A stretch of DNA of 64,000 nt from Giardia intestinalis (GCA_000002435.2 CM018789.1); one strand, 5' to 3'; shown: positions 1 through 13,364, numbered from the stretch's first letter. The notes: generated from the sequence alone by a model not told the origin. Numbers and translations are program-made.

Positions 1-1
1 A

Positions 2-952
2 GGGACAGAGATCACCTGCACCAAATGCTCTAGCAATAATCTGAGCCCCCTGGGAGACGCGTGTCTAACAGACTGCCCTGCCGGAACGTATGCCGTTAGT
101 GGCGACAGCGGCAGTGTCTGCAAGCCCTGTCACAACACGTGCGCCGGCTGCCAGACCGACGACAGGGAGACTTCCTGCACGGCCTGCTACCCTGGATACT
201 CCCTTCTGTATGAGTCCAACGGAGCAACTGGGAGGTGCGTCAAGGAGTGCACTGGTGCGTTCATTACCAACTGTGCGGACGGGCAGTGCACGGCTAACGT
301 CGGGGGTGCGAAGTACTGCACCCAGTGCAAGGACGGGTACGCCCCGATCGACGGGATCTGTACAGCGGTGGCAGCTGCCGGGAGAGACGTGAGCGTGTGC
401 ACGGCCACAGGTGGCAAGTGCACGGCATGTACAGGCAACTATGCGTTATTATCAGGTGGATGTTATAACACACAAACACTTCCTGGAAAGTCAGTATGTA
501 AAGCCGTGGCTAATAGCAATGACGGGAAATGCAAAACATGTGCCAATGGTCAAGCACCAGATCCTGCTACTAATTTCTGCCCATTGTGTGATTCAACTTG
601 TGCAGAATGTTCAACTAAAAATGATGCTGATGCTTGTACAAAATGTTTTCCAGGATACTATAAAACAGGAAATAAGTGTATCAAATGTACAGAAAGTAGT
701 AATAACGGAAAAAAGATCGATGGAATACCTGATTGTTTAAGTTGTGAAGCACCGATTAATACTGGTCCTGTCATCTGCTACGTTAAAACGGATGGCACTA
801 GCGATGATAACAGCGGCAATGGTGGAGACAGCACCAACAAGAGCGGCCTTTCCACTGGCGCCATCGCGGGGATCTCCGTCGCAGCCTTCGTCGTCGTGGC
901 CGGCCTCGTGGGCTTCCTCTGCTGGTGGTTCATATGCAGGGGGAAGGCGTAG
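2..952 (+). CDS. Variant-specific surface protein (VSP), C-terminal 317 codons; 5' end lies outside the window
   Basis: Frame 2 is open from base 2 to the TAG at 950-952. The translation is Cys-rich with CxxC pairs and a GGCY motif, a C-terminal hydrophobic TM (IAGISVAAFVVVAGLVGFLCWWFI) and the invariant CRGKA tail. It is identical at the protein level to the C-terminal part of the minus-strand VSP at 3601-5391. The ORF track begins at 368 only because that is the first GTG in frame. Confidence 0.9.
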   Translation, partial: GTEITCTKCSSNNLSPLGDACLTDCPAGTYAVSGDSGSVCKPCHNTCAGCQTDDRETSCTACYPGYSLLYESNGATGRCVKECTGAFITNCADGQCTANVGGAKYCTQCKDGYAPIDGICTAVAAAGRDVSVCTATGGKCTACTGNYALLSGGCYNTQTLPGKSVCKAVANSNDGKCKTCANGQAPDPATNFCPLCDSTCAECSTKNDADACTKCFPGYYKTGNKCIKCTESSNNGKKIDGIPDCLSCEAPINTGPVICYVKTDGTSDDNSGNGGDSTNKSGLSTGAIAGISVAAFVVVAGLVGFLCWWFICRGKA

Positions 953-967
953 ACTTAGGTAGTAAAC
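953..967 (+). promoter_or_regulatory. Extended VSP-type polyadenylation signal ACTTAGGTAGTAAAC (contains AGTAAAC = AGTRAAY) immediately 3' of the stop
   Basis: The sequence gcgTAG ACTTAGGTAGTAAAC is read directly. It matches the conserved Giardia VSP 3' motif ACTYAGRTAGTRAAY. Confidence 0.8.
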
Positions 968-3099
968 GCGTCACTGTATATGGCTTATTACGCTGTGCTG
1001 CTGGGGCTATCTGAGAGCGGTCCAGAGATCATGCGAGTGGGCCCGCTCCTTCCTGGCCAGTCTAAGGACGAGGGTTGAGTATGGATAACATAATGAAAGA
1101 GTCCTCTTCAGTGACACATCCAGAATCTGGGCATTCCTCGCCGCTCCATGAGGATATGCTCTGTCTGGATGTCCATGCCGATCTGCCTTGGATTCAGGTC
1201 TTCTCGCAGACTCTCTGCTCTACCAGTGGCGCCTCTCCTTGGCCTGCCGTCTGGTGGGTGAAGCTCCAGTCGCCGTCTTTTTTAGATGCTCCCGTCTGAC
1301 TCGGTGATTGCTGTCGGGCCCTCCGCTGGCTGGGCCCCTCGGTGTCCGGGCAGCTGTGGCCCGGGTCAGCGCTCCCACAGTCGCGGTCGCTTGGGTCCCA
1401 GCGGGTTCGGATGATGGGTGGGGCGGTGAGGCTGGTGGGGCTCTGGTGGGGGCTGAGGTTGGTGGTGTTCGTATGTGCCTCTGGGTTCGGTGGGTCATTG
1501 GGGTGATCCCCGCTCTGTTTGCCAAGGTGGTTGTGTCTGCTCTCCAGCCCTCGTTGCACTCCCGAGACACAGGCACCGACGATCGTGTCGTGTCCCCCTG
1601 ACTGAGTGCCTCCCTTGGCCCCTGCATGCCTCAGGCAGTACTGCTGCTCTGTCTGGCTGGTGCGTGAGTGTCGAGGCAGGCCATCGCAGCCCCTCCTGCT
1701 ACTCGCTGTTGCTCTGTGCGGGTCTGCTGAGCCCCTGGCATGCCCTGTCCGGTGCCTCGACGGGGAGTTCACCTGGGACCAGCAGGGGTGTGGATGAGCC
1801 TGTGGATGGGATGGGTTCTCTCATGCCTCTAGTGTGATGACTCAAAAGACTAACACGGTGGGGCATCGGTGACTGCACTGTCCCCGTGGTCAGCTGTGCT
1901 GCTCCTGGTGGGTCCTCGTTGTGAAGCGCTGTGTGTCGTCCGTAGGCAGGGGTGAGCCCCCTTGGTCTCAGGATGCTCTACCATCAGAGAGGAGCACGCT
2001 GAGGATCACCCAACATCACCTGCTGTGCCCTCGGGAGTTCCCGGTGTGGTCTACTAACCTTGACCCCTCCTCGTGGCTCTGATGACCCCTCGGGGAGAGT
2101 CGGCATCCTATGCCAGGGGAGGCGTGCACCCTCCTGCATGAGCTGAGTCACTCACTGCACTGCCCTCAAGGAGGTCTGCTATGAGAGGCAGTGGAATGAT
2201 CGACAGCCCCTCAGAGTGGGTGGAGGGTGCTCGTGGTCGTCTCTGTGACCGGGCATCACTCTGATGGTCAGTCCTGTGCCTGGGTGGTGCTCAGAGGTCA
2301 CCTGTGCTCCATAGCCTGCTGGACAGCCGGGCCTCTTGTGGTGTCCGAAGGTCTCCTCACTCCTCTGGCTGCTGCCCCCTCAGGTCATCGTGAATGCAGT
2401 CGAGGCCAGCGAGTCTGGTGCCTGCCTGGGTGTCATGGGGGCTGGCAGCTGTCAGGGCTCTGCCACTGCTCACCTGCCTGGAGTGTGCCTCCCTTGGGCC
2501 TGCTCTGCTGTAGTGTTTGAGTCCTCTGGCTTCCTATCAGGCCCTGATTGTGAGGGTGACCCCACCTGGTCCTCTGATGCCCCTGTGGATGAGCATGGCA
2601 GCTGTCTGGCTGGGAATCTCTGGTGCCCGTGTCTGTTGCTGCCTCTCGGGTGCTCGGGTGGTTGCCTGGGGCTCTCGTATGGGGCACAGTCAGCGTGTCC
2701 CGAGCAGACTCCGGTCCTCTCTGGGTCTACACAGTCTGTTCGTGTGTGGACGGTCCTCCTGCACTCAGGTCCGTCTGGTTCATTGTCACTCAGCTTCGAG
2801 AGTAGGCCAGTGCAGTCACCAGGGCTGCTGTCAGAGGGAGTCGTCTGCCACTACCATCGCTCGAGCAGGCCCTGCAGATCAGGCTGGCTGCTGTGCACCC
2901 TCAGCATCATGGCAGGGCTGCTTAACTCCCTTGGTCACCCTCTCTGTCCCAGCGTGCACGGCTCCTGAGGGTTGCCTGGGCGGAGGGCACTCACGAGTCC
3001 ACAGAGGGATGGGTCACAGATAGACAGCCCCCAGTCACCACAGCTGCGATCACCCGACATGGCCCATCAGACCCAGGGGCACATACAACCACCCCCCGG

Positions 3100-4552
3100 T
3101 CCCCTCCAGCCTCACCGCCCCATACCCCGCCTCACCCATCATCCGAACCCGCTGGGACCCAAGCGACCGCGACTGTGGGAGCGCTGACCCGGGCCACAGC
3201 TGCCCGGACACCGAGGGGCCCAGCCAGCGGAGGGCCCGACAGCAATCACCGAGTCAGACGGGAGCATCTAAAAAAGACGGCGACTGGAGCTTCACCCACC
3301 AGACGGCAGGCCAAGGAGAGGCGCCACTGGTAGAGCAGAGAGTCTGCGAGAAGACCTGAATCCAAGGCAGATCGGCATGGACATCCAGACAGAGCATATC
3401 CTCATGGAGCGGCGAGGAATGCCCAGATTCTGGATGTGTCACTGAAGAGGACTCTTTCATTATGTTATCCATACTCAACCCTCGTCCTTAGACTGGCCAG
3501 GAAGGAGCGGGCCCACTCGCATGATCTCTGGACCGCTCTCAGATAGCCCCAGCAGCACAGCGTAATAAGCCATATACAGTGACGCGTTTACTACCTAAGT
3601 CTACGCCTTCCCCCTGCATATGAACCACCAGCAGAGGAAGCCCACGAGGCCGGCCACGACGACGAAGGCTGCGACGGAGATCCCCGCGATGGCGCCAGTG
3701 GAAAGGCCGCTCTTGTTGGTGCTGTCTCCACCATTGCCGCTGTTATCATCGCTAGTGCCATCCGTTTTAACGTAGCAGATGACAGGACCAGTATTAATCG
3801 GTGCTTCACAACTTAAACAATCAGGTATTCCATCGATCTTTTTTCCGTTATTACTACTTTCTGTACATTTGATACACTTATTTCCTGTTTTATAGTATCC
3901 TGGAAAACATTTTGTACAAGCATCAGCATCATTTTTAGTTGAACATTCTGCACAAGTTGAATCACACAATGGGCAGAAATTAGTAGCAGGATCTGGTGCT
4001 TGACCATTGGCACATGTTTTGCATTTCCCGTCATTGCTATTAGCCACGGCTTTACATACTGACTTTCCAGGAAGTGTTTGTGTGTTATAACATCCACCTG
4101 ATAATAACGCATAGTTGCCTGTACATGCCGTGCACTTGCCACCTGTGGCCGTGCACACGCTCACGTCTCTCCCGGCAGCTGCCACCGCTGTACAGATCCC
4201 GTCGATCGGGGCGTACCCGTCCTTGCACTGGGTGCAGTACTTCGCACCCCCGACGTTAGCCGTGCACTGCCCGTCCGCACAGTTGGTAATGAACGCACCA
4301 GTGCACTCCTTGACGCACCTCCCAGTTGCTCCGTTGGACTCATACAGAAGGGAGTATCCAGGGTAGCAGGCCGTGCAGGAAGTCTCCCTGTCGTCGGTCT
4401 GGCAGCCGGCGCACGTGTTGTGACAGGGCTTGCAGACACTGCCGCTGTCGCCACTAACGGCATACGTTCCGGCAGGGCAGTCTGTTAGACACGCGTCTCC
4501 CAGGGGGCTCAGATTATTGCTAGAGCATTTGGTGCAGGTGATCTCTGTCCCT
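3100..4552. repeat. Right arm of the inverted repeat (reverse complement of 1-1450)
   Basis: Same evidence as the left arm. The arm is bounded on the right only by the window start, so the repeat may extend further into the VSP coding region. Confidence 0.85.
3586..3600 (-). promoter_or_regulatory. Extended VSP polyadenylation signal (reverse complement gtttactacctaagt = ACTTAGGTAGTAAAC) 3' of the minus-strand VSP
   Basis: Mirror image of 953-967, immediately after the minus-strand stop at 3601-3603. Confidence 0.8.
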
Positions 4553-5391
4553 GCCCGTGCAGCGCTTTCCTTAGAGGTGCATTCTCCACAGTTTTCTATG
4601 CCGCCATTATTCGTTGTGCCACAACTTACGCATACCTTCTTGTTACCACCAGCGCTGTCAGTAGTGGGGAAGTGCGTCTTGCCTTCTCTGCACACGGCTT
4701 CGCTAACGCAAGACGTTTGTTCATCTGCTTCTGTTTTCAAATAATCAGCAGCACATTCAATGCACTTTGCAGGACCAGCGTTCTTTGGCTTTTCACATTT
4801 AGCACATCCAGCAACTCCTTTGTAGCTATTAGGCCCTGTGGTAGCGTCACATTTTATGCACCCACCTTCATTTCCAGTTGCTCCAACAAAGTATCCGTCT
4901 ATACATTTTGTACATTTGTTTTCACCAGCTCCTCCACATGTGGCACAGTTGGCATCTTCACATGCTATACAGGAGTCTGCAGTTGCAACAGCATCCGAAT
5001 TCTTATAATAGCCATCCTTGCAAGCACCACACACCCCTGCAGTACGTGCACCAGGATTTGACGCCTCATCCGCACAGATGAGATTGCCAGGAGCCTCTCC
5101 TATCTTATAGCATCCGCCTTTGTGCAGGAAGTAGCCATTTCCACATTGTCCACATACCTTATCACTTTCTTCTATATTAGTACCCCCGTTCTTCTTACAA
5201 CCAGCGTTAGTGACTGCTTCTTCACTATGGGCTGTACATATTCCATTGATGGGTACTTTCCCTTGATTACATTGCATACAGATTTCAGTATCGCCAATCG
5301 TATCACATTGGCCAGCTTCACAACTATTTCCACTATTCTTGCAATCTACTGCAAATGTAGATAATATAAGATAGAAGGCTATCAACAACAT
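3601..5391 (-). CDS. Variant-specific surface protein (VSP), complete, 596 aa
   Basis: ATG start. N-terminal signal peptide MLLIAFYLILSTFAVDC. About 12% Cys in CxxC spacing, GGCY motif, single C-terminal TM and CRGKA tail. AT-rich region upstream (5392-5650) is consistent with a Giardia promoter. Confidence 0.95.
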   Translation of the reverse strand: MLLIAFYLILSTFAVDCKNSGNSCEAGQCDTIGDTEICMQCNQGKVPINGICTAHSEEAVTNAGCKKNGGTNIEESDKVCGQCGNGYFLHKGGCYKIGEAPGNLICADEASNPGARTAGVCGACKDGYYKNSDAVATADSCIACEDANCATCGGAGENKCTKCIDGYFVGATGNEGGCIKCDATTGPNSYKGVAGCAKCEKPKNAGPAKCIECAADYLKTEADEQTSCVSEAVCREGKTHFPTTDSAGGNKKVCVSCGTTNNGGIENCGECTSKESAARAGTEITCTKCSSNNLSPLGDACLTDCPAGTYAVSGDSGSVCKPCHNTCAGCQTDDRETSCTACYPGYSLLYESNGATGRCVKECTGAFITNCADGQCTANVGGAKYCTQCKDGYAPIDGICTAVAAAGRDVSVCTATGGKCTACTGNYALLSGGCYNTQTLPGKSVCKAVANSNDGKCKTCANGQAPDPATNFCPLCDSTCAECSTKNDADACTKCFPGYYKTGNKCIKCTESSNNGKKIDGIPDCLSCEAPINTGPVICYVKTDGTSDDNSGNGGDSTNKSGLSTGAIAGISVAAFVVVAGLVGFLCWWFICRGKA

Positions 5392-5649
5392 TGAAGTTTC
5401 CCTCAGCTTATTATAGGGTAAGAGTCCTGTTAGTAAAGGTACTTAAAGCTAAAAAGATTCATCTGGTTATTACTATGCTACTAACTTAGAGATCTTCCTT
5501 TTTTATAATATCGTTGTACAAGCGATAGTTGTTAATGCTGAAAGCATCTACTACATATAGTTTGCCGCCCACCACGGATTCTTGCACAACACGCAGGGAA
5601 ACAGAAAATTCAAAAATAAGTAGCGATGCTGTCTTGCGTGTCTGCTACT

Positions 5650-8600
5650 CCCCTACCCTGTAGCTAATCAAAGGGCGGCCCGGGCGTCCTCCCTGCGTTA
5701 TGGGCCCACTGCTGGTTCCTCTCCTAATGTCTCTGCGTCCCTGATGAGCCAGCTCCCTGTGCCTCCCCTGCGCGGATCGAGCCCCTGTGGACCCCCGTGC
5801 GCCGATGATCTCTTCTCCGCCTCTGTAGTATTCTCATCCTTTTGGATTATGTCTGCGATTCCTAGCTGTCGTGGGGGAGCCGCACTCAAGGATAGACCCC
5901 TACAAGATCCCAAGAGAAGATCGCAGCAGTCGCTAAGGTCCATAGATGTGTGAATCAGTGTAGATTGGCCTATGAGACGCTCTGGTTTGTTGGGTGTGCA
6001 TGGCGCTATTTCTGGCTTTTTGTAGTGGATACTTTAAGGTTCCACATCACATGATAAGGTGTCAGATGGTCAGAGGGCGTAGGCCAGCAATCCTAAATTT
6101 AGACAAGGAGGAAACCCTGCCCAAGCTGTGCCACCCCCTGAGCTGATGGATCAGGACTCTTATCCTCCCCTCTGGATCATCCTGGTGCTATCACTACCAC
6201 CACTAATGGAAGCACCTAGGAGTGCAGTACCTTGAACCTGTTAGTGTAGGGCTCTAGGTCCTCAGAGCTTCCTACATGTGGATGTCTGTAGTAGAAGGAA
6301 CAGGGATCCAGGGAGACTGTATTAGTCCAGCATCCTTTATAGCCTCCTGTGAGTACTAGAGCAGTTGATCCCCCCATCTGCTGATAAGGGAATCGAATAG
6401 CATTCGCTCATGACCCTTGGTCCGAGCTATAGTTGGTCCCGAGGAGACACGCCGATCAGCCCAAGCGTCCTACCTCTTGACTCACGAATCATGCCACATT
6501 GCAGGACTTGTACTGGTGTTGCTTAGCACGCGTTACATAATGCATAGAAGGCCGGCATCCTCCTATCATATAGCTATAGGAATCAGACAAACCCTATTGA
6601 GGGCATCATATCCTGCGATCTTCTATAGCTCCGCTAGAGGCCAGAGCACCGCTGTACACAGACTGGTATGGAAAGTGCGATCCAGCACCATACACCTTGA
6701 GCTGGGAGTCCCATAAGCATGCGTTTCTGATACAACTCGCCAAGAATCTTGTAGGAAGCTGGCCTAAGTCAGTTACTGGAAGGTTTCCAATGAGCAGACG
6801 ACTGCTGTGGTCTACCAGTCGCTCCTCCTTGTCTTAAAAGATATCTGGTAATGTCTAGTGTTGTGGGCTGGGTGGTCCCTGTCCATCTATAAGATTTGAC
6901 TGGTGTACGTTGTAGACAACTGACGAGATTGATATCATCTTCCATCAGATGGGTCTGGGTGAGCAGGCAAACTATGTAGTTGACCGGTTATTCTAAAAAA
7001 TCCTGCACTTATGAGGCCACAACTACAACTTGCATTCGATAGGTAAGGAGTTCTATTGGACTGGGATGCTCTCTGCAAGTTCCTCGGGACGTGTGGCTAC
7101 CTTAGCGCAGTCTCCAAGAGGGTAGCCTTGTCTGACGGAGACGTGCAGGCACGAGCACAATATAGCGCCCTTCTCAGTCTACAGGGTCAAGCACACCCCA
7201 GACGACGGAGATAGATGGAGACCCAGAAGTGATCAATGCTAATCTGAGCTGTTCTGATCCCTCTTGGCTAAAAGATTAGTAGGATCGCAAAATGACAGGG
7301 ACCCACTTCACACCCCCGCTCAAGGAGGTCATGCCTTAGTGGAAGTACGTGTCATGGTTACTGCTGACTACTCGTTAACAAGGTACTGCTGTGCTTGAAG
7401 ACCTCCTGGAATAGCCTGTCTCGGTTTGCTGGTCATGAGCTGGGTCCTCGCGCTAGCTGATTGGATGAGAAACAGTAGTAGTATTACCCAGACGATGAGC
7501 TGAGAAGGCTGATGCTGACTATGTATCTCTCACGCTGAGCATACCCACTGTGCAGCGCAAGGGATTTGACGTCCTAGGTGGTCAGTCGAAGCTGCTAAGT
7601 GTTTGGTAGTAACGATATGCACGCGGGCTCCAGACAGCGGATTGTGAGTGAAGATGTTGGGGAGCACAAGACCTGCTGGATTACATAAGACGTACAAAGG
7701 ACCCCCACGCAGTGAACTGATTGACCCTTTTTCTTGGTAGACAAGGCTCTGGCCTGTAGTGGCCGCCTGCATAACACATTCTTTTGTGGGACCGATGGAA
7801 GCACCTGTTGATCTGGAAAGACCATCAATAAATGGTTGCACGAGATAGACGGGCAGAGGACAAGAGCTGATCAGATCACCTTGGCTGATGAGCAATCCAA
7901 ACTACGCAGTATGTGTAGCAACCTGTATCGAAGGTGGAGATACATCGTAGGACGTCATGTGGCCAAGAAGCGTCATTGGTGTCCGTCTGCCGTGGGAGGA
8001 CGTAGGTGAGACACATGTGGACAGCAACCATGCCGACTGATACCAACCTGCGCAGTATACCTCTACAATCGATCCTCACCCGTATACGAAGGGAAGGTGA
8101 ATGCCCTCGGTTCCAAACGAAGCAACTCTTAATAATATTACGTTGCTGTAAGTGCATAAAATCAAAAAGCAGCATCTAGCTTGTCTGCAGACCCTACGAC
8201 CTCTCCAGGCATAGAGGTCAAAGAGGCAATACAGGTGTCCCTGCTGTAATTCAGGCTAATTGCTGGCCTCTCTAGCATCAGTTTTATCTCACTGGTCTGC
8301 TGGTGGCCTCTACCTTCTCTGTGTGAGCCGGCTCTCTGAGAATCGCTGTGCACGGATAGCTTCCTGTGCACCTAAGTAACACCCTTCTTCGTTGAGGTGT
8401 GTCACCAAGGGCTAAATATTATAAAGCGAATGCTACCAAAGACAAGCCTCCTCGTAGGTCCGTCTGCCACTAGCAGGGAGCATCCAAACGTGTGCACAGG
8501 TTCTTGACAAATGGACTGTGATCCAGGCCAGTCAGTACACTAGGCTTATGGCACTTGGTGCACGAGTTTCCGTTTTTAGCTTTAGATGCAGGCCCATGTC

Positions 8601-11600
8601 TCATCTTGAAAGACGGTGGATTGCTCTGCAGGACCTTTTTAAGTATACAGTTATCATTATAGCCAGTGGAGAAGCAGCCATAAAGACTCTATACTTAAAC
8701 AAAAGCACCTCTGGTGCAACCAAGCGCTGTCTCCTATCGATAGCAAACACCTCAGACAGACGGTGGCTACTCTACCATTGGACATCGTGCAACGTGGATA
8801 ACCATGGAAGCCGCTGTAATCTCTATTCAGTCTGCCGAGCAGACGCAGCCTCTGATCGCAGCAAGCACGATGGCTGACAGGGTGCCAATGTAAGCCAGCT
8901 GAACCGCCTGTCTCAGCGCAGCTGCATGCATTTGGAAGTTGGAGTGCACCTTTATGAAGACAACGCACCGTCTGTATATACCGTTGTCTCCTTCTGTGCT
9001 GCTTAAGATCTTAATGCCTCAGAAGTCAGGGCCAGCCAGAGTGTCCCCAGCCTGCTCACCTGGGAGACCAAGGTCGATACCGCGCATAATACATCATCTT
9101 AGGGAGACAGCGGCTGCCATCGTCGTTCCGGATTTTTTGGTATCAGACAATCAGCCCCGTGATTAGTCCACTTTTCATAGCCTCTATCTGCATATCGATC
9201 CTGGCTTCTGGCTGCTTAGGCAGCGGATGAGGAGGCAGTACAGAGCATCAGTCACTGGTCTGCCTTTTATCCGCACATGGCCCTGAATGGCGGGTCAGAC
9301 AGTGCACAGCTTCCTCTTCTGCCCTGGATGTGATGCAACCTAGCTGAGGCATATGCCTTTCCAAGGAGTGATCGGATAGCACCTGGAGCTGCTCATGATG
9401 GGCATGCTCACCATCGCCCAGCTCTGTCCTCTCTCCAGCCATCAAGAGATACCTCCTGAGTACATACCTGCGGAGCACTGCATAGAGATAACAAGACGGC
9501 GCCACCACCCCTCGAGTCTCCTCGGCTTGTCCGGCAGCGTGCCTCTTAGAGTCCAGTGTGGGCCCGCCGGATGCATTTATGCGACTGTGGATACCTTACA
9601 GCGTCGCACTCATCTAATTCACTCTGTACCCTATTCTATCTGGGAGCAGCCCAGCCGTGCACAGGAGTCCCAGCCCCCACTCAGGATCTGGTCCAACGCT
9701 CACCTGGCTCGATGCCCTGCTGCACCTTGTTGGATGCCGCGCTGAAGCTATCGATCTGGCGATGCTCTGGGCGCACCACCCCACATCCACGCTGCTATAA
9801 AGCAGAGATCCTCAGGCTGCCCGTGGCCCGTTATAAGAGCTGTGATGCATAACCGCACACAGAGTGCCTGACTTAATATGCACCTGTCCACCGATGTGCC
9901 CTGACACTTGCTGGTGGAGATGCGTTGCTACAACCACGCAAGTGTTTACACCCCCTAGAGACTCTCACGCCATGCAACATAGAACTCTCCTGCCTGGCAC
10001 GGGCTCCATGATACTAAGGCCCTAGAAGAGCGCCCTGGGCGCCTTCAGTCCTATTTGGAGAGGAGACGTGGTGCGGGAGGGCTAGCTGCTTTCCAGCGTG
10101 ACTTAGAATAGTTGGAAGACCGCATGAAGACCTCTCACCACATGACCAGCGTGGTGTTCTGCCATCTGCCACTGATATAAGAGCCAACCCGCTGAGTCCA
10201 CATCGAGGCAGAGCACCACCCAACAGTGTAGGCGAGACTTATAACCGTGCTCATACATGTACACGCTGCTCGACCGGTTGGTGCCCATGTCCCTACGCCC
10301 TGCTCCTTCGCTGTACAATTGCTCCAATCGAGGCTACCAAAGCGTGGGTCCAGTAGCCACTATGCCCGTTGTACCGACAACGACAGCATGCCGCTTGCTG
10401 TAGGCGCCATCTACATCCAGGCATGCTCTTCACCGTTGTGCTGCTTCTGGTGCACTATGCGGCTTGTATGATGATTCATGTCCCCGGTGACCACTGGGAG
10501 TGTTGTCCCCGTGCCATCTTGATATCGAGTCCGATAATTGCCTGACAGAGCTCCCGGCTTGTGTGACCCTATATGGTAGTCTTGATTAGCACACAAATGT
10601 GTAATAGTTATGCTGCAAGACCCAGTAACAGCCGCTGGCCACTCGCATTGAGGTGAGAGACCAGACAGAAGTAGGAGTAGAATGCCCAAGAGGAACCATA
10701 TCATTAGATCTGCATCTGCAGAGAAGTTCACCTGTCACTACCACAGGGACAGGGCTCCATGTAAAGTATCAGTGAGCAATACCATAGGCAGTACCCCGAC
10801 TGTGCAGCTGCGGTGGCCGATGATCTGGAATGCTGACACATCTGCTACCGTCATGGATGGACTGGCAGGCCAGATAAGGATGCTCTAGGCTGCGATGGAA
10901 TCGCATGAGATTGTGTATGACTGGGGGTCACTTCCTTGTTATGCCTGCTATCGAAAGCCAGCTCATGAGATGGACAATCTTGGAGTGGTCAGTCCCCGTG
11001 TTCTCCCAGACATCAAGACTGTGAGGGCCTCCATGAGCTTTCATGTCCTCGTCCAGTCATGCTGGCTGTTCTCAGAAGCAGTCATAACTGTCGGGCCTGT
11101 TCGGATGCCACACCCCTGCAGGCCTCGGTGCTTTGAGCACAGCTTCCAGGCTGCATGCGTGCATTGGTGGACACCAGGTACGTCACTCGCTCCCTATTTT
11201 CTAAGCCTGTTATGACAGGGGTAGCCCTCACTAGCCTGACCCAGCCAAGCCTCCTGGCGTCCTACGCCGGGAGTTGCGGGGCCCAGACAGTTGTCTTATC
11301 TACACTATGGTTGCCATAATGACGGGTATATGATCACAGCCCTGATGGGATCATCTTCGCTGTCCTGGCGGACCTCCAACTCTTCAATGGGATAGATACG
11401 GGGCACCATCTCTCGACACTTTCAGCGAGGGTGACAGGCGCAGTGCTCTCGATACCAACAAGTAATGATGTTGGAGCGCAATGGACTGTCACAGAGTTAT
11501 AAAATTTCCTTCTTCCTTCCTACGTTAAAGCTGATCAATGTTCGAACTCTCTCGGATTAAATCCAGAAGTTGGCAGGACACCGCGTCCCGGTGAGGCTCG

Positions 11601-11720
11601 GAAGCTCAAGATCAGCATGTGATCACTAGCCGTTGAGAATAATGCACAGCACTCAGCAGCTCTCTCTCAGGGTCTGCTGGAGGCTGAATGAGCACAGGCA
11701 GGCAAAGCTCTTATGACGAG
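5650..11720. other. 6.1-kb region with no credible coding potential (gene desert / degenerate sequence)
   Basis: In about 6 kb the longest six-frame ORF is 121 aa, and stops occur at random-sequence frequency in all frames. There is no codon periodicity, no Cys-codon enrichment and no tandem repeats. Base composition is near even, with scattered short AT-rich patches. Confidence 0.5.
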
Positions 11721-11777
11721 CCATCGATTTAAAAGGATATTAAAAAATTACGAATAACCCCTTTAAATTCAAAACCA
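11720..11777 (+). promoter_or_regulatory. AT-rich initiator/promoter region upstream of the 11778 ATG
   Basis: The sequence gatttaaaaggatattaaaaaattacgaataacccctttaaattcaaaaccaATG is a typical Giardia short AT-rich core promoter directly abutting a start codon. Confidence 0.55.
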
Positions 11778-13364
11778 ATGGGCCAGTCGCCGTCCAAGCT
11801 TGCACCCCCGCCTTTCCTCGCGTTGCCAGTGCCTGGTGTAAGGTTCACAGGCCCCAATGGTACGACGTGCACGTGGGCAGACCTGTACGCCCACTGTTCT
11901 ATCAGGGCCCAGAAAGCCGTCCTTGACGCGTTCAACATGAAGTACAGGGAGAAGGTCGTCCACTGGCACGGGACGTTGCTGAATGCAGATCCTAGCACTA
12001 ATTCCGTCCTTTTCAAGATGAGCCCCTCTATCAACCAGGGGGCCGTTCCCGACCTGGCTCTTCACTTTCCTCAGTCGTTTACGGTGACGCAGCTTCAGCC
12101 TCTGATAAAAATGAATGAAATGAAGACGATCGACTTCGTGGGGAAGCTGAGAGGGATGAACGGGCCCGTAATTGCCGCTGACTACGTTTCTGTGGGCGGA
12201 GGCTACGTTGAAAAACCCGAGCACAATCTTCCAAAGACCGTTGCTGATGCGCTGCATGCGATTCCGGAGGCCTTCCCCTCTCTGGCTGCTCTGGAGTCTC
12301 AATTGACGGTGGAGTATCCTATGGTTGCGATGGAGTGCTCCATGCAAGCACGCGGGCTTCCTGAAGCTATCTTCATGAGGCACATCACTAAGGTTGCCGG
12401 CGCCTTATCCTGTCAGGTTATAGAGGTGTCTCCTCAGAACGCCAAGGTCAAGTGCAACCCCCGCATAGATGAGAAGGCGCCGTTCGATGTTCTAGTTACT
12501 TTCCAGCCAGCCATGGCTGCGAAGCTCCCAGAGGTCAAGCAAGGGGCGCTCTGCACTTTCCGGGGCAAGTACACCTCGATATCAACAGCACGCGAGCCGC
12601 AGAAGGTCTTTGGATTTGCCGCCGACGACGTTGTTCTCAATAAGGATCCTGCGGCAAGCTTAGCATCCCTGCCCACTAAGGGGGGCGATGTGTTCTACCA
12701 GGGTCAGGACGAAGTTGTGATGAAGAATCTCCGTGCTCAGGTTGAGTCTGATAGGCAGCTTCATAAGTCCATGAGGGGTGGTGCCCACGCACAGACACCA
12801 GCCTCTGCTCCCACTCCAGCGCCGCCGGCTCCATCAGAGCCCGCATCCTCATCTGCAGGGCACAAGCCAGCTGATGATAAACCCGTGGAGGAGCCACCAG
12901 CTGAAGCCTCAAAGCCAGCCGAGCCAACGCCGAAGGTCGAGGAGGTCAAGCCGCCAGTCATCGAGGAGACAGTGTCAGACGTTGCTGGGAAGGATCCTCT
13001 GGAGGTTGCTCTTACCCTCATGCAGTCTGCGCCAGAAGCGTCCTACACTGTCAAGAAGAGCATCCTCGATGCAGATGAACAGGAGGACGACCCAGTGGCC
13101 CGCATGGCCAGGCTGAAGATGGGCGGCTTCAACGCCAGCGCGTTTACTTCCTCCGCCGACAAGTACATGGGCGAGCTGGACATGCTAGCCGGCGTAAAGC
13201 CAACGCAGCAGAGTGACTATGACGTGTATGACGTGGCTAATGACTACAATAATACAAACAACTATGATAGCTACAACAGTGGCTACGATAACTATAACAG
13301 CGGCTATGACAACTATAGCAGCGGTGGCTACAACAGCTATGGCGGCGGCTATAGCAGCTGGTAG
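11778..13364 (+). CDS. Hypothetical protein, 528 aa; predicted N-myristoylation motif (MGQSPSK), acidic Pro/Glu/Lys-rich linker and C-terminal Tyr/Asn/Gly/Ser-rich low-complexity tail
   Basis: Long ATG-initiated ORF with an AT-rich promoter upstream. No recognisable catalytic domain. The MGxxxS N-terminus matches the N-myristoyltransferase consensus. The C-terminus contains degenerate YDNYNSG repeats. Confidence 0.6.
   Translation: MGQSPSKLAPPPFLALPVPGVRFTGPNGTTCTWADLYAHCSIRAQKAVLDAFNMKYREKVVHWHGTLLNADPSTNSVLFKMSPSINQGAVPDLALHFPQSFTVTQLQPLIKMNEMKTIDFVGKLRGMNGPVIAADYVSVGGGYVEKPEHNLPKTVADALHAIPEAFPSLAALESQLTVEYPMVAMECSMQARGLPEAIFMRHITKVAGALSCQVIEVSPQNAKVKCNPRIDEKAPFDVLVTFQPAMAAKLPEVKQGALCTFRGKYTSISTAREPQKVFGFAADDVVLNKDPAASLASLPTKGGDVFYQGQDEVVMKNLRAQVESDRQLHKSMRGGAHAQTPASAPTPAPPAPSEPASSSAGHKPADDKPVEEPPAEASKPAEPTPKVEEVKPPVIEETVSDVAGKDPLEVALTLMQSAPEASYTVKKSILDADEQEDDPVARMARLKMGGFNASAFTSSADKYMGELDMLAGVKPTQQSDYDVYDVANDYNNTNNYDSYNSGYDNYNSGYDNYSSGGYNSYGGGYSSW
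13214..13361 (+). repeat. Degenerate in-frame tandem repeats (about 21-nt units, GGCTAYGAYAACTATAACAGC) encoding the YDNYNSG low-complexity tail
   Basis: The DNA-level repetition ggctacgataactataacagc / ggctatgacaactatagcagc / ggtggctacaacagctat is visible. Confidence 0.6.

Follow-up and report, generated by a model that had tools for sequence, protein, structure and literature searches.

The VSP1267 pair and its inverted repeat

[quoted passage not shown] This locus is the already described VSP1267 pair on chromosome 1 of Giardia lamblia WB (GL50803_00112208 / GL50803_00d112208). It corresponds to vsp98.1 of Adam et al. 2010 and was, according to that paper, described by Mowatt, Aggarwal and Nash in 1991; it was catalogued in 2010, 2020 and 2022, and as a gene pair it is already known. 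The features of the locus are as follows.

1-1420, no strand: left arm, exact part, complementary to 3133-4552 and truncated by the window edge
2-952, + strand: left VSP1267 copy, 3' 951 nt (316 codons and stop), ending in CRGKA; the 5' part falls beyond the window edge
953-967, + strand: extended VSP polyadenylation motif ACTTAGGTAGTAAAC of the left copy, from a motif scan
953-1420, + strand: left 3' flank within the exact arm, A-poor from about 1200, 81-86% identical to the module flanks of contigs L007 and L008
1421-1508, no strand: left arm inner end, degenerate and G-rich, terminating in GGGTGATC; 72% identical with gaps to 3048-3132
1509-3047, no strand: unique non-coding core (spacer) of 1,539 nt, 62% GC, A-poor on the + strand
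3048-3132, no strand: right arm inner end, degenerate, from the gapped alignment to 1421-1508
3133-4552, no strand: right arm, exact part within the window, complementary to 1-1420
3586-3600, - strand: extended VSP polyadenylation motif of the right copy, from a motif scan
3601-5391, - strand: complete VSP1267 gene, 596 aa, Pfam PF03302; N-terminus, length, Cys and CXXC counts and chromosome as in published tables
5389-5395, - strand: initiator CAATGTT overlapping the start codon, read from the sequence; an Inr is also published for vsp98.1

The 596-aa ORF matches Pfam PF03302 with E=3e-76 and 257 bits (cut-off 31.4), starts with the hydrophobic N-terminus MLLIAFYLILSTFAVDC and contains 68 Cys (11.4%), 23 CXXC and GGCY at residues 92 and 432. 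In both copies a C-terminal membrane span is followed by the invariant CRGKA (...AIAGISVAAFVVVAGLVGFLCWWFICRGKA, then the stop). The truncated frame, 316 aa and a stop, agrees without any difference with the C-terminal end of the complete ORF, as had been proposed for the last 317 codons, and according to the literature the identity covers both ORFs in full. Xu 2020 and a 2022 preprint both count the gene among the bona fide VSPs, and it has been published as a chromosome 1 gene with the label TTIPa. Protein start, length, Cys and CXXC counts, Inr, orientation and spacing of the published pair all match the window, and no difference was found. A protein search with VSP1267 returned a closest match of only 59% identity, although the gene is public, and a metagenome scan yielded just two distant Cys-rich proteins (L005 and L006) with 22-26% identity. 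An adjoining ORF shows 100% identity to GL50803_8528. Those Logan contigs that include the neighbouring gene end about 400 bp upstream of VSP1267.

Directly after the stop codons, at 953(+) and 3600(-), both genes carry ACTTAGGTAGTAAAC, which agrees with the VSP-type extended polyadenylation motif ACTYAGRTAGTRAAY and lies inside the identical flanks, as the sequence-only reading had stated; the supplement of the 2022 preprint gives an identical polyA 20-mer for GL50803_00112208. Upstream of the VSP1267 start the DNA is AT-rich (5392-5672), and the INR CAATGTT has been assigned to vsp98.1 (Adam 2010). Both copies are probably ordinary VSP genes, each equipped with an initiator and a polyadenylation signal.

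A repeat search across the whole 64-kb window found a single inverted repeat, 1-1426 against 3127-4552, with 1,700 nt between the arms. In a base-by-base check, 1-1420 proved exactly complementary to 3133-4552; the first mismatch stands at 1421, and the ungapped arm of 1,426 nt contains only this one. Because the window edge truncates the left arm, 1,420 nt is a minimum for the arm length. Thus the proposed near-identity of the arms holds without a mismatch over this distance, and the dimensions that had been given, arms of about 1.45 kb around a spacer of about 1.65 kb, were close approximations. Beyond 1420 a gapped homology runs to a shared GGGTGATC at 1501-1508 / 3048-3055, and in these inner arm ends 67 of 93 aligned columns match (72%); by blastn the repeat extends over 1-1517 versus 3039-4552. 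Counted from each stop, the exact identity continues for 468 nt, where about 500 bp had been estimated, and the gapped homology for 556 nt. A perfect inverted repeat of 1.4 kb cannot have arisen by chance.

The intergenic module and its paralogues

The stop codons enclose 2,648 nt of intergenic DNA (953-3600, '-> <-'), which equals the value in table S4 of the 2022 preprint. This 2.65-kb module is composed of two inverted 3' flanks of about 0.55 kb and a non-coding, A-poor core of 1.54 kb. The core does contain long ORFs, but these exist because A is scarce and stop codons are consequently few. The possibility that the core harbours a coding or RNA gene was considered and rejected: the core ORFs lack a Pfam match, Rfam gave no match at E<=1 in 1-12000, codon periodicity is absent, and indels relative to the paralogues are not multiples of 3. 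By tblastn the core gave a single, marginal match to a VSP (2691-2951, E=7e-4). Motif scans of 1509-3047 found neither a canonical polyA signal nor an AT-rich 8-mer. AT-rich initiator-like 8-mers occur at 1.5 per kb in the whole intergenic region versus 10.3 per kb window-wide, and AGTRAAY is found once per transcribed strand in 1-6000 and nowhere in the core. Strict G-quadruplex motifs (loops <=7) are absent as well, only relaxed ones being present.

Copies of the module are present in two samples and in WB, and the comparison contigs L007-L010 come from an AII-like isolate (assemblage A). As the housekeeping proteins of that sample are 99.2-99.4% identical to those of WB, the diverged modules on these contigs, which are 71-90% identical, represent paralogues. 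For the same reason, L007 was rejected as an orthologue of VSP1267 from another lineage. L007 carries a different VSP with a flank of 84-86% identity and ends at the corresponding arm boundary. The core alone, with about 90% identity, makes up L009, and L010 comprises half of the core and the right flank. L008 spans flank, core and inverted flank behind a single VSP, a second VSP being absent, and the arms of its internal repeat (534-896 versus 2951-2583) are 87% identical. The repeat/core boundary at GGGTGATC recurs in L008 and L009, and the singleton VSPs L003 and L004 align only to about 968-976. The module is therefore multicopy, and its repeat/core boundary is fixed across the family. Between these paralogues the core is more conserved (89-90% identity to L008, L009 and L010) than the flanks (71-86%), and this conservation, together with the marked strand asymmetry and the missing polyA and AT-rich elements, hints at a constraint beyond a purely structural account.

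Foldback or long-TIR elements likewise have inverted ends of about 0.4-0.55 kb, a non-coding core and multiple copies, and the occurrence behind a solo VSP in L008 fits this likeness. They differ in that the VSP module always lies directly after a VSP stop codon and a transposase is absent, no Pfam domain being found in the core ORFs, whose indel pattern is non-coding. Both the solo occurrence and the position after a VSP stop could equally reflect decayed former pairs.

Origin of the perfect arms

Identical inverted VSP pairs form a known class, which the Giardia genome papers since 2010 have listed and judged cryptic though interesting. WB contains about 13 tail-to-tail and 7 head-to-head pairs. 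Adam 2010 described 14 identical inverted pairs, with a spacing of 2,393-3,222 nt between tail-to-tail ORFs and an abrupt onset of 3' divergence 318-559 nt past the stop; PacBio reads confirmed 19 identical pairs (Xu 2020). VSP1267 falls within this class in all respects, with '-> <-' ORFs that are identical (316 aa and stop in the window, full length from the literature), 2,648 nt of non-coding DNA where about 2.4-3.2 kb is typical, and flanks that end 468 nt (exact) or 556 nt (gapped) past the stop. The tail-to-tail pairs of WB share homologous intergenic DNA, and the other pairs encode different VSPs; in GL50803_115797/d115797 the spacing is 2,649 nt, almost as in VSP1267. G. muris has 7 identical VSP pairs, which differ in their intervening DNA (ARP-2 pseudogenes, NEK, tubulin) and in their distances of 1.7-10.6 kb.

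The repeat at VSP1267 combines parts of different age, as the inner 88 nt are 72% identical and the outer part, at least 1,420 nt, is 100% identical. Perfect arms that are younger than the inverted repeat to which they belong indicate homogenisation at the DNA level, by gene conversion or by inverted duplication that recurred. Within the pair there are 0 differences in 1,420 nt versus 14-29% between the paralogous flanks, and the arms of the solo module in L008 have 87% identity. As the arms are perfect, no conversion tracts are visible. The inverted repeat pre-existing in the module may thus drive arm-to-arm gene conversion, and alternatively or additionally a fold-back or template-switch inverted duplication might occur repeatedly. 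By either route two identical intact VSP copies would be kept or re-created; the pair would encode a single antigen, whose mRNA, once the pair is chosen for expression, could reach very high levels. The proposal of a recent duplication or gene conversion, which the sequence-only reading had based on the identity reaching into non-coding flank, was structurally correct. Taken together, we think it quite probable that the perfect arms of this known VSP1267 palindrome are a phenomenon at the level of the DNA, and that an RNA-hairpin function is not needed for its anatomy.

Arm-to-arm gene conversion has reportedly been described for palindromes of the human Y chromosome by Rozen et al. in 2003. 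These palindromes likewise have near-identical inverted arms, functional multicopy genes and a unique spacer, and the two arms of one palindrome are likewise more alike than related palindromes are to each other. They reach up to Mb in size versus kb in Giardia, and conversion was demonstrated there by cross-species comparison and is deduced here, so that the analogy is a functional one and not a homology.

A single recent inverted duplication, with arms identical merely through youth, no continuing homogenisation and no role of the module, is one alternative. It would account for the perfect identity of at least 1,420 nt, it accords with the preference of Adam 2010 for recent duplication and transposition, and it suits the position of the pair at a synteny break, since in contig L011, whose lineage shows 73% nucleotide identity, genes for ribosomal protein S7 and ankyrin take the place of the pair. 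A one-step event fails to explain the 72% identity of the inner 88 nt, however, unless the breakpoint fell inside an older repeat. Moreover, all 19-20 pairs of WB and all 7 of G. muris are reported to be identical, which is unlikely to result from independent recent accidents, and modules differ by 10-29% between pairs and arms by 0% within the VSP1267 pair. We therefore regard a single duplication as unlikely, although it keeps a small share of plausibility.

Proposed roles in hairpin RNA and switching

As alternative to the DNA-level account of the arms, a function in RNA had been suggested, in which transcripts that escape polyadenylation cross the core and fold into a stem of at least 1.4 kb, or in which sense and antisense transcripts pair, giving Dicer-made small RNAs for VSP silencing or switching. 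The stem would indeed be perfect, with arms of at least 1,420 nt, and once past the first polyA signal a transcript would reach the opposite arm without passing another canonical one; by itself this absence is neutral as to efficient read-through. As the core lacks AT-rich initiator-like 8-mers, any core RNA would have to come from outside. In WB, 81% of the tail-to-tail gene pairs whose 3' UTRs have been mapped have overlapping transcripts. Transcription is pervasive in Giardia, and for most VSPs antisense reads outnumber sense reads. In the literature found by our search the idea has been neither tested nor proposed.

Several observations are difficult to reconcile with such a function. The complete VSP polyadenylation motif directly after both stops argues against efficient read-through, and in an expressing clone the VSP1267 pair provides 87% of the VSP transcripts and the top mRNA, which is hard to square with constitutive self-targeting. 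Silencing works just as well for the roughly 70% of intact VSPs that exist in one copy, and the head-to-head pairs are equally perfect, although VSP read-through cannot yield a hairpin in that arrangement. Of 104 published small RNAs associated with Argonaute, none maps to the window with up to 4 mismatches; this is a weak test, as the set had been filtered for short hairpin precursors. Liao et al. 2014 reportedly traced endo-siRNAs to retrotransposons and to three further regions, VSP pairs not being among them. The SRI/SRII endo-siRNA regions were considered as possible VSP pairs and rejected as an unrelated locus: the SRI/SRII-tagged genes 92651, 92663, 93851, 137687 and 137688 sit among 'DNA polymerase, putative' genes at CH991767:1.35-1.39 Mb, where most clustered Argonaute-bound RNAs are also located.

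In animals and plants, hpRNA or endo-siRNA loci, such as esi-1 and esi-2 of Drosophila, are defined by a spanning transcript and Dicer-dependent small RNAs. The VSP1267 pair resembles them in its long inverted repeat, which could form a perfect stem if it were one transcription unit. It differs in that each arm contains a complete coding gene with its own polyA signal, which can give rise to the commonest mRNA of the cell, and in that the locus is known here from its sequence. Silencing by a hairpin RNA is so far without support and is pure inference, and we consider it improbable. Still more doubtful is a combination of both ideas, in which the module is a dedicated element that seeds and maintains identical copies and in addition lets escaping transcripts form a VSP hairpin that feeds Dicer. 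If this were true, about 30% of the intact VSPs would carry a built-in source of dsRNA.

The pair had also been proposed as a recombination cassette, in which recombination or inversion between the arms would serve antigen switching by changing the expressed VSP. Long perfect inverted repeats do suit intramolecular recombination, and recombination among VSPs is evidenced in the literature, but VSP switching without DNA rearrangement has been reported (background in Adam 2010). A crossover between the arms would flip just the core and the arm parts inside the crossover and leave genes and promoters unchanged. As such an exchange inverts the spacer and changes neither gene, a switching cassette is very improbable. 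The likelihood that the pair is an assembly artefact, a collapse or chimera, is practically negligible: identical pairs were doubted in the older assembly and short-read contigs such as L007 and L009 end at the arm boundaries, but the pair has been in the literature since 1991, before genome assemblies (according to Adam 2010), the chromosome-scale PacBio assembly keeps the identical pairs, the 2022 re-analysis lists the VSP1267 pair, and the short-read contig L008, from another isolate, covers a paralogous module without a break, from the flank across the core to the inverted flank.

The locus itself is a textbook example of its class and adds nothing new. The question that remains is why about 30% of the intact G. 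lamblia VSPs, and most intact G. muris VSPs, sit in perfect inverted pairs. There are two candidate answers: the pairs may reflect nothing more than palindrome-type gene conversion, by which intact genes are protected, or they may also supply dsRNA for the disputed RNAi model of VSP control. The multicopy module, its fixed boundary, the old inner repeat with young arms and the solo version with diverged arms narrow down the explanation at the level of the DNA.

The VSP1267 locus

The ORF at 3601-5391 on the minus strand carries every hallmark of a variant-specific surface protein (VSP): it matches Pfam PF03302 (E=3e-76), contains 68 Cys, 23 CXXC, two GGCY, a membrane span and CRGKA, and has the initiator CAATGTT at its ATG. 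The large ORF that follows it (11778-13364) matches GL50803_8528 of G. lamblia WB at 100% identity. The locus is the published VSP1267 pair, GL50803_00112208 / GL50803_00d112208, whose products begin MLLIAFYLILSTFAVDCKNSGNSCEAGQ... and which the supplementary tables of two papers place on chromosome 1 (NC_051856.1), with 596 aa, 68 Cys and 23 CXXC per copy, the label 'TTIPa' (tail-to-tail inverted pair) and the 3' motif GACTTAGGTAGTAAACGCGT. A 2022 preprint, whose supplement lists the protein accessions XP_001706567.1 / XP_037901584.1, gives the pair in table S4 as '-> <-' with 2,648 intergenic nt and no annotated feature in between, a distance that equals 953-3600 of the window exactly. It was the sole identical inverted pair known before genomics, tail to tail and ~3 kb apart (Mowatt et al. 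1991, per Adam et al. 2010).

As a feature the pair is nothing new, since it is a long-described member of a catalogued class. Adam et al. 2010 counted 14 identical inverted pairs (10 tail-to-tail, 4 head-to-head), with 2,393-3,222 nt between the tail-to-tail ORFs and an abrupt loss of flank identity 318-559 nt past the stop, and called them "an interesting, but cryptic observation". The PacBio assembly (Xu 2020) confirmed 19 pairs, which comprise 38 of 133 VSPs, and the 2022 preprint lists 20 (13 tail-to-tail, 7 head-to-head) and describes near-identical intergenic sequences between different pairs. In G. muris, 7 identical pairs occur among only 26 intact VSPs in total.

A repeat search of the 64-kb window returned one large repeat, the inverted pair 1-1426 / 3127-4552 with arms 1,700 nt apart. 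Aligned arm to arm, as the sequence-only reading had suggested, 1-1420 and 3133-4552 are exactly complementary base by base, with mismatches starting at 1421; from there the repeat continues as a gapped, G-rich, degenerate stretch (1421-1508 versus 3048-3132, 67 of 93 columns or 72% matching) that terminates at GGGTGATC, common to both arms. The extent given by blastn is 1-1517 versus 3039-4552. Because the gapped homology runs to 1508 and 3048, the unique core between the arms is 1509-3047 (1,539 nt). The right arm is part of the complete 596-aa ORF, the frame 2-952 on the plus strand encodes the same last 316 residues and stop, and ACTTAGGTAGTAAAC, the extended VSP polyadenylation motif, lies directly 3' of both stops. 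Adding the full 1,791-nt ORF to the 468-nt flank gives an expected arm length of at least 2,259 nt. The inverted VSP pair noticed in the sequence-only reading is confirmed, its coordinates and sizes having been good approximations.

Upstream of the complete copy, 5392-11777 (6.4 kb) contains no ORF longer than 121 aa, and a Pfam search of its three ORFs of at least 110 aa gave no match; a gene-free stretch of this kind is out of the ordinary in a genome as compact as that of Giardia. On contig L007, the 5' flank of a paralogous VSP is collinear with two segments of this stretch (5712-5778 and 8144-8537), and the 2022 preprint reports transposon relics within 7 kb upstream of VSP1267. Repeated DNA is suggested by the short-read (Logan) contigs of WB-like samples, which stop at window ~11380 (~400 bp upstream of GL50803_8528). 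In contig L011, from a lineage 73% identical in nucleotides, synteny begins 55 nt upstream of GL50803_8528 (window 11723, L011 9947) and runs rightwards for 11.6 kb, with none to the left, where ribosomal protein S7, ankyrin and zinc-finger genes replace the VSP pair and the gene-free stretch. The pair thus stands at a synteny break.

The non-coding core and its paralogues

The core is non-coding. Of 50 indels between its copies, a single one is a multiple of three, substitutions between the copies show no codon periodicity, and Pfam and Rfam searches of the core gave no match. Its GC content is 62%. On the plus strand it is strongly depleted in A: 237 of the 1,700 nt between the ungapped arms (1427-3126) are A, and each 200-nt bin across the ~1.8 kb of 1200-3050 has only 8-19%, beyond which the asymmetry reverses and the right flank is T-poor. 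This A-poverty gives rise to long spurious ORFs (2336-2968, for example), and a spurious core ORF served as the query that found the core contigs L008-L010. The strand asymmetry is kept in all paralogous modules (L008 600-2400, L009, and L010 1-600). Relaxed G-quadruplex motifs number only three in the 64-kb window, all in the intergenic module, and strict ones (loops <=7) are absent from the window.

Sequence elements of the intergenic module
1393-1423, plus strand: relaxed G-quadruplex motif (loops <=12)
2648-2684, plus strand: relaxed G-quadruplex motif (loops <=12)
3118-3160, minus strand: relaxed G-quadruplex motif (loops <=12)
1276-1287 and 3266-3277, plus strand: TTTTTTAGATG / CATCTAAAAAA element, ~325 nt downstream of each stop

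Two of the three G-quadruplex motifs lie at the inner arm ends, and read-through transcription of a VSP gene would copy their strand. Each flank has only two AT-rich elements, of which the TTTTTTAGATG / CATCTAAAAAA element is one; paralogous modules retain it (L007 6197, L008 2720, L010 893). Its A-run faces the VSP gene when read on the opposite strand, and one may speculate that it is a candidate AT-rich initiator of antisense VSP transcripts.

L007 (ENA ERZ27317378) encodes a different VSP with 48% protein identity to VSP1267. The 3' flank of that gene is 84-86% identical to 953-1426, and the contig ends 6-8 nt further on, where an assembly graph should break at the inverted repeat. In the singleton VSPs L003 and L004, similarity goes no further than ~968-976 and covers only the CDS end and the polyadenylation motif. 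L009 is a stand-alone 1,639-nt contig equivalent to the core and ~90% identical, and L010 comprises the right flank and half of the core. The 6-kb contig L008 runs from a VSP C-terminus through flank and core into an inverted flank, with only 87% identity between its arms and no second VSP. A Cys-rich gene (L008 4266-6071, plus strand; PF03302, E=3e-25; ~30% identical to VSPs) lies 1.3 kb past this flank in the orientation of the upstream VSP; a pair that has decayed or been rearranged is one possible origin of the site. The repeat/core junctions GGGTGATC|CCCGCTCTG... and GGGTGATC|GCAGCTGTGG... are identical in WB, L008 and L009. Of the proteins from ERZ27317378, one matches a DH-isolate entry exactly and two others are 99.2-99.4% identical to WB; judged from these sequences the sample is assemblage AII-like, and these modules are therefore paralogues, not orthologues, of the VSP1267 module. 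Between the paralogous modules, 1509-3047 and its counterparts in L008, L009 and L010 are 89-90% identical and the flanks 71-86%, a pattern that hints at constraint on the cores or at exchange between them.

Origin of the perfect arms

The proposal that the arms reflect recent duplication or gene conversion is supported by the perfect outer arms and by identity that extends into the non-coding flank. Within the repeat, identity is only 72% over the inner 88 nt but complete over at least 1,420 nt outside them; paralogous modules diverge by 10-29%, and the arms of the solo module are 87% identical. One recent duplication of the entire arm does not account for this pattern. The inner 88 nt are old, and we infer an older inverted repeat whose outer parts, together with the attached genes, would have been homogenised by arm-to-arm gene conversion, or alternatively regenerated by a fold-back or template-switch duplication beginning within the old repeat. 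Such a step would also explain the equal perfection of head-to-head pairs and the excess of intact G. muris VSPs in pairs.

Possible functions of the pair

The sequence-only reading proposed that a read-through hairpin RNA from the pair could be a source of VSP-directed small RNAs, which we consider improbable. Several observations favour the idea. Within 1-6000, AGTRAAY occurs once per transcribed strand, after each stop, and the core has no second canonical signal. AT-rich 8-mer segments number only four in the intergenic DNA (1.5 per kb versus 10.3 per kb in the whole window); each arm contains two, mirrored in the other arm, and the core is free of them, so that core RNA would be possible only by read-through; tail-to-tail transcript overlap and VSP antisense RNA are both published as common in Giardia. 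However, both copies have the full VSP polyadenylation motif, and in a published VSP1267-expressing clone the pair gives about 87% of VSP mRNA (roughly 18,000 TPM), hence the locus is not self-silencing. The majority of VSPs are single-copy and silenced nonetheless, and the promoters of head-to-head pairs cannot yield such hairpins. Of the 104 Argonaute-associated small RNAs in Table S1 of Saraiya 2014, not one maps to the window with <=4 mismatches, a weak test as that list was pre-filtered for short hairpin precursors. The literature searched contained neither a proposal nor a test of the VSP-pair hairpin idea, and the available pointers lean against such a function. The other suggestion, VSP switching by recombination between the arms, is unlikely because an exchange would flip only non-coding DNA.

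Elsewhere in the old WB assembly, one region of roughly 36 kb (CH991767:1.35-1.39 Mb), in which 'DNA polymerase, putative' genes lie (137688, 93851), has a cluster, spread over both strands, of about 40 of the 105 published Argonaute-bound 'miRNAs', and a 2023 extracellular-vesicle study tagged these gene IDs as SRI endo-siRNA sources. The cluster resembles one large siRNA-producing element more than a set of miRNA genes.

Why identical inverted VSP pairs persist in Giardia can be tested directly with small-RNA and long-read data that already exist, if twice-mapping reads are retained.
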